From NCBI RefSeq assembly GCF_055900595.2, contig NZ_CM148325.1: 64,000 nucleotides of DNA; one strand, 5' to 3'. Below the pieces are notes generated by a model that did not search any database, was not told the origin of the DNA, and worked only from the letters and a program-made list of their open reading frames with translations. Numbering within the stretch: the stretch's first letter is position 1; each line of letters starts with the position of its first letter. This document shows positions 41,388 to 42,097 of the stretch, piece by piece. The translations under genes and the position numbers were made by a program.

Positions 41388-41395
41388 ATAAATAT

Positions 41396-41419
41396 CCTCC
41401 GGCATAGCCGGAGGTTTTT
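41396..41419 (+). terminator. Hairpin with T-run after yddM; terminator or IS200 end structure
   Basis: CCTCCGG-catagc-CCGGAGG followed by TTTTT. Confidence 0.5.
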
Positions 41420-41495
41420 CAAATGCGCCTGTAAGGCTCTGTTACCAGCCGCGCCCTAACAGGCGCATACGATCTGACATTTGCATTCAACTTCG

Positions 41496-41954
41496 TTACT
41501 TACGGCCCGTAAACGGGCTGCCCGGATATGGAATCGATAACTGCTCCCCCATTTTATCCTCTTCAAGCTGGTGCTTTATGTAGTCCTGTATCTTCGCCGT
41601 GTTCTTACCCACCGTATCGACATAGTACCCTCGGCACCAGAACTCCCTGTTTCTGTATTTGAATTTCAAATCCCCAAACTGCTCGTAAAGCATCAGACTG
41701 CTTTTCCCTTTCAGATATCCCATAAAGCCGGATACGCTCATTTTGGGTGGGATTTCCACAAGCATATGGATATGATCTGCGCAGCACTCTGCTTCCAGAA
41801 TCCGTACGCTTTTCCACTCACACAGCTTTCTCAAAATACTGCCTATCGCCCTACGCTTCTCTCCGTAAAACGCCAGTCTTCGGTATTTCGGCGCAAAAAC
41901 TATGTGATATTTACAGTTCCAGCGGGTGTGCGCTAAGCTCTTTTCGTCCCCCAT
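41496..41954 (-). CDS. tnpA: IS200 transposase TnpA (Y1 HUH transposase)
   Basis: ORF 41496-42005; start at the internal Met gives 152 aa MGDEKSLAHTRWNCKYHIVFAPKYRR…HIHMLVEIPPK…, with the HxH motif and catalytic Tyr region; near-identical to IS200 TnpA as I recall it. Confidence 0.9.
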   Translation of the reverse strand: MGDEKSLAHTRWNCKYHIVFAPKYRRLAFYGEKRRAIGSILRKLCEWKSVRILEAECCADHIHMLVEIPPKMSVSGFMGYLKGKSSLMLYEQFGDLKFKYRNREFWCRGYYVDTVGKNTAKIQDYIKHQLEEDKMGEQLSIPYPGSPFTGRK

Positions 41955-42097
41955 TGGGACCCCCTTTTGATTTCTTGTTTGACACTTGCAGTTGCCAGAC
42001 CGCAAGGTGTTTTAACAAATCAAAAGGGGTTTTAATAACTGGCTCAAAGCTGAAAGCTTTCCGGAACCCCCAGCCTAGCTGGGGGTTTTCTGTGCAC

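Follow-up and report, generated by a model that had tools for sequence, protein, structure and literature searches.

The block that separates yddM from fdnI in the DNA analysed here, a 64,000-nucleotide stretch of E. coli DNA (contig NZ_CM148325.1, hereafter the window), is very probably an intact and autonomous IS200, a member of the tnpA-only group of the IS200/IS605 family, that was inserted recently at an intrinsic terminator. It occupies positions 41387..42097 on the minus strand, where a 711-bp core has GTGCACAG...GGATATTTATT at its ends, and it is the only IS200 copy within the 64 kb. Every testable feature that defines the IS200 group was found in it. Its position between the convergent genes yddM and fdnI had been given by an earlier examination of the letters without database searches (the sequence-only reading), and this placement is borne out. 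What does a base-level analysis of so common an element add? An IS200 insertion as such is routine: the element is a textbook one, about half of the complete E. coli genomes carry IS200, and the exact sequence found here is already known from many E. coli genomes, in which it is annotated by PGAP. The added value lies in a base-level map of the site, in the recent activity of the element in this lineage, and in a rule of terminator targeting.

The ends of the element were set by comparison with an empty site. The flanks in AST85 match the window with 0 mismatches in 6000 nt on the left and 3000 nt on the right, and AST85 lacks the block: 719 nt of the window replace CGCAAT-A7-TGGCGC, a net insertion of 712 bp. 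This isogenic pair fixes the element ends to about 1 nt. The net insertion exceeds the 711-bp core by one T (position 41386 or one of 42098..42104) that can be assigned to neither side; slippage in the homopolymer, cleavage in a shifted register or an eight-T ancestor could account for it. Beyond this single T in a homopolymer, there is no target duplication at the filled site relative to the empty one. Likewise, the ends GTGCACAG and TATT are not inverted repeats of one another, and the element is without terminal inverted repeats. Alignment to IS200 references gives the same 711-bp span, with both ends set, in Salmonella IS200F. The sequence-only reading had put the element at 41390-42097 with an uncertainty of about 40 bp; its boundary on the fdnI side is exact and that on the yddM side is 3 nt short, so it did far better than it claimed.

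Copies elsewhere agree with these boundaries. Six copies at other loci are identical end to end while their flanks diverge, the 711-bp span recurs in six other E. coli copies as well as in IS200F, and it is 710 bp in IS1541B. In tandem IS1541 dimers, ...TATT is joined directly to GTG.... Ends read from the top BLAST hits gave six copies that all carried T7 on the left and TATTT on the right, a result that we set aside as biased because the query had included flanking T's. Used instead was a scan keyed to the internal, exact left-end hairpin, which yielded 120 stretches, mostly from Y. pestis, Vibrio, other Enterobacterales and several metagenome bins. In all of the hairpin-keyed copies the left end starts about 10 nt before the hairpin (GTGCACAGAA in the window copy) and the right end ...CCTCCGGCTATGCCGGAGGATATTTATT is kept. 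The number of T's that follow GGATATTTA is never less than two (two in 21, three in 14 and at least four in 13 of 48 junctions), and thus only two right-end T's are constant. The features of the element and its surroundings are collected in Table 1.

Table 1. Features of the IS200 insertion and of the neighbouring genes, in window coordinates.
Feature	Position	Strand	Remarks
RelE/ParE-family (HigB-like) toxin gene	40825..41103	+	precedes and overlaps yddM; identical protein so annotated by PGAP in relatives
yddM, HigA-family antitoxin	41103..41387	+	stop codon TAA 41385..41387 preserved; last base(s) coincide with the element end
Right-end subterminal hairpin CCTCCGGC-TAT-GCCGGAGG	41396..41414	.	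dG about -15.5 to -15.9; flagged on both strands by the terminator scan
tnpA	41496..41954	-	intact 152-aa Y1 HUH transposase; stop codon 41496..41498
Antisense sRNA art200	~41946..42035	+	approximate; expected by homology only, from the description in PMC4513863
5'UTR stem-loop burying the tnpA Shine-Dalgarno	41961..42029	-	RNA fold -43.8 kcal/mol, z -4.6 versus shuffles; Rfam STnc490 structure aligns
Left-end perfect hairpin AACCCCCAGC-TAG-GCTGGGGGTT	42065..42087	-	dG -18.7 kcal/mol; by homology, the bidirectional terminator published for IS200
T7 tract of the fdnI terminator (A7 on +), integration target	42098..42104	-	7 T in the empty site, 7 + 1 in the filled site (T at 41386)
Bidirectional intrinsic terminator hairpin TGGCGC...GCGCCA	42105..42128	.	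TTTT next on +; dG -17.9 including A/T tracts
fdnI, formate dehydrogenase-N gamma subunit	42150..42803	-	last gene of fdnGHI; same orientation as tnpA

The reading frame within the element had been described as a Y1/HUH transposase nearly identical to that of IS200, and the family tests agree. Pfam Y1_Tnp (PF01797) matches the 152-aa ORF over its whole length (E 9e-37), and the NCBIfam equivalog transpos_IS200 (NF033573) scores 144 bits, its cut-off being 55. The translated ORF contains the catalytic residues H61-I-H63, Y125 and, four residues on, Q129. It aligns with the solved IS200/IS605-family transposases 2ec2 (E 2e-23) and IS608 TnpA, 2a6m (E 3e-19); the alignment covers the HUH and Tyr motifs, which match the dhih and Yi..Q motifs of 2ec2. 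Identity at the protein level is 96.7% (147/152) to Salmonella IS200F, 97.4% to E. coli IS200C and 93.4% to Yersinia IS1541B; copies elsewhere in E. coli genomes encode a TnpA that is 100% identical and is annotated as WP_000502112.1. Nothing was seen that would speak against an IS200: the empty site shows an inserted block in place of a continuous chromosome, the transpos_IS200 score places the ORF in that family, tnpA is undisrupted, and no reference alignment moves the ends. A two-gene element of the IS605/IS608 type was rejected: there is no tnpB next to tnpA, which is the only long ORF with a family match, and 711 bp leave no room for one.

The ORF might instead be a REP-associated tyrosine transposase (RAYT), since RAYTs share the Y1 HUH fold and the NCBIfam model REP_Tyr_transpos gives a weak match of 30 bits, or it might be a decayed remnant. 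We give this virtually no credence. The REP_Tyr_transpos score is far under its cut-off of 80, whereas the transpos_IS200 score is far above its own; IS200 is a mobile, multicopy element with identical copies at many loci; and the ORF is full length with its catalytic residues in place. A RAYT/REPtron was rejected on the additional ground that no REPs flank the element at the window site.

The hairpins that the sequence-only reading had called characteristic of IS200 are present at both ends of the element. The one at the left end corresponds to a published terminator, nt 12-34 of the element in Ellis et al. 2015 (PMC4513863), which is bidirectional and stops about 85% of read-in transcription (PMC4513863, PMC5435999); this hairpin is presumed also to be the end hairpin bound by TnpA. 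Similarly, the stem-loop that buries the tnpA Shine-Dalgarno has a published counterpart at nt 69-138 of IS200 (PMC4513863). Both features are modelled by the Rfam family STnc490 (RF01405; left-end hairpin plus tnpA 5'UTR), whose full-length match at 41964..42087 on the minus strand scores 146 bits against a gathering threshold of 56. We note that this model matches the tnpA-sense strand and scores just 19 bits on the opposite one, while STnc490/art200 is described as an RNA antisense to the tnpA 5'UTR in Ellis et al. 2015 (PMC4513863); the Rfam family thus seems to have been built in the sense orientation. A scan for a sigma-70-like promoter found none, which agrees with the published description of the tnpA promoter as weak and undefined.

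At the other end, the right-end hairpin is followed by TTTTT on the plus strand and by ATATTTATT on the minus strand, and is therefore terminator-like in both directions. It is related in sequence to the left-end hairpin (CCTCCGGCTATGCCGGAGG versus CCCCCAGCTAGGCTGGGGG), and each of the two lies about 10 nt from its end of the element. Because the right-end hairpin is found in every IS200/IS1541 copy at unrelated loci and is absent from empty sites, it belongs to the element and is not a terminator of yddM. The same hairpin drives a weak match to the Rfam family Ysr202 (41314..41419, 31 bits versus a gathering threshold of 315). Membership in Ysr202 was rejected, as this score reflects just the shared right-end hairpin, and the match suggests that the 3' end of the Yersinia sRNA Ysr202 is an IS1541 right end.

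How does the window copy compare with its known relatives? Salmonella enterica IS200 (IS200F, LT2) follows the same plan, with about 707-711 bp, tnpA as the only gene, a left-end terminator hairpin, a stem-loop that sequesters the Shine-Dalgarno and a right-end hairpin, and the copy examined on a Salmonella plasmid also lies after a hairpin and T7. The DNA identity to the window copy is about 92%, and the first 7-8 nt differ, being GTCTATGG in Salmonella and GTGCACAG in the window. Among the E. coli elements, the window copy is 100% identical over its whole length to copies in many genomes, unnamed IS200 variants whose TnpA PGAP annotates as IS200/IS605 family transposase WP_000502112.1. This variant shares about 96% DNA identity with IS200C; copies of the IS200C type, some of which sit in the very terminator seen here but in other strains, have 26-30 differences in 711 nt and four in the protein. 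IS1541 of Y. pestis and Y. pseudotuberculosis has the ends GTGCCCAGAA...GGATATTTATT, the same hairpins and the same placement after a terminator T-tract. It shares about 87% DNA identity with the window copy, is 710 bp long, and reaches more than 50 copies per genome, including tandem dimers. In Y. pestis NCTC5923 the head-to-tail dimers join ...ATATTTATT directly to GTGCCCAGAA at a spacing of 710 bp, with an extra T at one junction; this arrangement is consistent with one copy having inserted at the TATT end of its neighbour, or with a circle junction that was trapped. More distantly, IS608 of Helicobacter pylori and ISDra2 resemble IS200 in having a Y1 HUH transposase, subterminal hairpins, no inverted repeats and no target duplication, and in inserting 3' of a short specific sequence with a related tetranucleotide at the right end of the element. 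However, IS608 and ISDra2 carry tnpB and use the targets TTAC or TTGAT, whereas IS200 is without tnpB and has an apparent T-rich target, TNTT, next to a hairpin.

What has the insertion done to its neighbours? In the empty site the spacer between yddM and fdnI is 50 nt long and holds a single bidirectional terminator (A7-TGGCGC...GCGCCA-T4), which before the insertion was common to fdnGHI and the higB-like/yddM genes and which now lies solely on the fdnI side. The element interrupts no coding sequence, and fdnGHI retains the hairpin and its seven T's. As far as the coding sequences go, the earlier expectation that neither operon is disrupted is upheld. The companion claim that the fdnI and yddM terminators are both intact is right for fdnI, but yddM had no separate terminator to keep, only its share of the bidirectional one. 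The yddM stop codon abuts the element, and transcription leaving yddM now encounters the right-end hairpin with its TTTTT before any other terminator-like structure. We propose that yddM transcripts probably end there, which would correct the local transcript map in that yddM no longer reaches the shared terminator. The element is likely shielded from fdn read-through by the fdn terminator together with its own left-end hairpin, and the insertion is likely close to neutral.

A copy so placed might also have been retained as useful, either because its right-end hairpin, which with TTTTT begins 9 nt past the yddM stop codon, serves as a new terminator or stabiliser of the higB-like/yddM mRNA, or because 5'UTR-derived or antisense sRNAs act in trans, as IS200 5'UTR-derived RNAs do in regulating invF in Salmonella (PMC5435999). 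The nearest relatives nevertheless manage without this copy, and the roughly 15-17 other IS200 matches in the lineage could supply the same RNAs, so we judge a selected function to be very improbable.

The yddM-fdnI spacer is structurally polymorphic even without IS200. LS4 and AST85 have the 50-nt form with its single terminator; ATCC 11775 has a spacer of about 230 nt and K-12 one of about 410 nt, with two or three copies of the terminator separated by REP/BIME-like sequences. The HigB-like toxin gene is present in the window. K-12 and most E. coli lack it (their matches begin at query position 299), LS4 has a frameshifted copy and 2017-02-2CC a truncated one. Consequently, yddM is often an orphan antitoxin.

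The element is widespread in E. coli. IS200 matches were found at 10275 places in 2645 of the 5426 complete E. coli genomes, with a median of 2 places and a maximum of 35; AST85 and its relatives have 15-17 matches per genome. In keeping with the sequence-only reading, which had IS200 absent from K-12, the AB1157 chromosome has no IS200 match, and the sole place that matched there corresponds to the flanks. The element is mobile, being multicopy and polymorphic for presence or absence at identical flanks, and other loci, in AST85 and its group among others, hold copies with 100% identity to the window element. At the window locus, all four of the closest genomes checked (AST85, Z0117EC0005, E400634 and 2017-02-2CC) have an empty site, and these are 99.2-100% identical to the window on the fdn side. 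The change is thus recent. At the level of sequence, the comparison indicates a transposition in the window strain, excision in the relatives being less likely.

Could the insertion instead be ancestral in the lineage, with AST85 and the other relatives having lost IS200 by precise excision? Peel-and-paste excision restores the donor site exactly (PMC5027513), and the filled and empty sites differ just by the element and a single T, as precise loss would predict. On the other hand, an ancestral insertion is hard to square with four empty sites in the four nearest genomes and with the absence, among the 5426 E. coli genomes, of any filled locus matching at 100% over its full length. Excision and transposition of IS200 are reported to be extremely rare (PMC4513863), which argues against loss, and on parsimony a single gain does at least as well as a single loss, and better should the window strain nest in the empty group. 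We therefore regard ancestral insertion followed by loss as improbable, and retain recent gain as the preferred reading. The contrast between the filled site of the window strain and the empty sites of its nearest relatives provides a useful strain marker.

The claim that the insertion is strain-specific holds within this lineage and fails beyond it: of 5426 other E. coli genomes, 302 (about 300), from other lineages, carry IS200 at the yddM-fdnI intergenic terminator. The copies found there belong to at least three variants, with 0 differences (window type), 7 differences (intermediate) and 26-30 differences (IS200C type), and the T-tract is split in different ways (7|0, 7|1 and 6|2). The filled backgrounds include genomes with and without the toxin gene, and GF60 has a K-12-like flank and a spacer with REP elements. 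By these sequence comparisons, we conclude that the yddM-fdnI terminator is a recurrent hot spot for IS200. Gene conversion between copies, together with homopolymer slippage, could lie behind part of the variety seen at this hot spot.

Is the preference for terminators general? Every E. coli copy examined lies directly 3' of a GC-rich hairpin and a T-run. A detector of perfect-stem terminators, which accepted 70 of 116 distinct left flanks, was dropped, since most of its failures were visibly imperfect hairpins; it was replaced by a folding-energy criterion (dG <= -10 kcal/mol and at least five T's in the last 8 nt) and two random controls. With this criterion 104 of the 116 distinct left flanks of IS200-group copies from many taxa are terminator-like, in a sample that was selected by the exact left-end hairpin and to which one Y. 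pestis genome and several metagenome bins contribute the bulk. The corresponding share is 0.9% among positions drawn at random from the same loci, and 15% among randomly drawn ones that end in TTTT. Y. pestis copies taken by themselves give 48/52, and most of the copies that fail the criterion still have a hairpin. The left flanks end in TT in 101 of 116 cases, while the last four bases are T-rich and variable (TTTT 52, TATT 17, TGTT 11). As the flank hairpins all differ from one another, and the one at the window site pre-exists in the empty site, they are features of the target and not parts of the element. A recent preprint (10.1101/2025.07.22.666184) likewise finds terminator-like sequences over-represented just upstream of insertion sequences, most strongly for IS200/IS605.

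We put forward, as a tentative proposal that may well prove wrong, that IS200-group transposases actively choose intrinsic terminators, and that IS200, which is supposedly dormant, is now active in this E. coli lineage. The preprint reads the terminator niche differently, as one that limits transposase expression and favours persistence (10.1101/2025.07.22.666184). This lends weight to survivorship, whereby IS200 would insert at any T-rich site and the harmless copies past terminators would persist; indeed, a copy behind a terminator does the least harm and is protected from transcription reading in. Survivorship has more difficulty with the finding that only 15% of TTTT-ending random positions are terminator-like, as opposed to 90% of the real sites, and with the recently expanded IS1541 population of Y. 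pestis, in which the proportion is just as high. Selection alone would also allow other intergenic T-runs, and the same E. coli terminator has been hit repeatedly. We consider survivorship unlikely, if still deserving of some weight; the TTTT-ending control and the repeated hits at this one terminator favour target choice. If the targeting of terminators is mechanistic, it would explain why a high-copy IS200 seldom breaks genes, and a hairpin followed by TNTT would be a concrete substrate for the biochemistry of IS200 TnpA.

How might a terminator be chosen? The single-strand peel-and-paste mechanism via a circular intermediate is established for IS608 and ISDra2 (PMC5027513, PMC2806898), for which it is the paradigm, and is assumed for IS200. 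By analogy with these elements, TnpA would bind both subterminal hairpins on one strand and would cut at the 3' side of two tetranucleotides: TNTT in the left flank and, on the right, TATT, the last four bases of the element, which would mimic the target. The single-stranded circle so released would then be pasted 3' of another TNTT on single-stranded DNA at a replication fork. We propose that a terminator hairpin with its T-tract, when exposed on single-stranded DNA, may make a preferred site, which would leave the pasted element co-oriented with the terminated gene. A T-run would offer several recognition registers, and this could account for the variable T counts and for the one extra T. 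A candidate guide for recognising the T-rich target is AGAA, which stands just ahead of the left-end hairpin. Across the hairpin-keyed copies, the tetranucleotide at this position (AGAA, CGAA or GGAA) shows no informative covariation with the target: the sole invariant bases are the closing TT of the target and the AA of the guide. Guide-target pairing is thus proposed by analogy with IS608. With respect to the replication fork, the GC skew of the window is -0.002 with mixed signs, which carries no signal for the replication strand. On the K-12 map fdnGHI is co-directional with the clockwise fork just before dif; the top strand of the element would then presumably lie on the lagging-strand template, as expected for the family.

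The exact 23-nt left-end hairpin of IS200 also occurs in bins assigned to Bacillota, Peptococcaceae, Saccharibacteria, Elusimicrobiaceae, Mailhella/Desulfovibrio, Oxalobacter and Vibrio. In these bins of very distant taxa it mostly lies at the end of a contig, and a terminator-like hairpin with a T-run precedes it in every case. Either the IS200 group with this invariant hairpin has a very wide host range or some of the bins are contaminated.

Finally, we note two observations on the DNA beyond fdnI. The mechanical ORF for fdnG (43693..46740) is just 803 aa long, compared with the 3048 nt annotated in relatives, a shortfall expected from the in-frame UGA selenocysteine codon of formate dehydrogenase-N. 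Downstream of fdnG, at 46800..52000, close relatives annotate two leucine-rich-repeat proteins, an OmpC-type porin and yddG; a 9.9-kb stretch is covered to at least 80% in only 1113 of the 5426 genomes, so that part is variable among E. coli.
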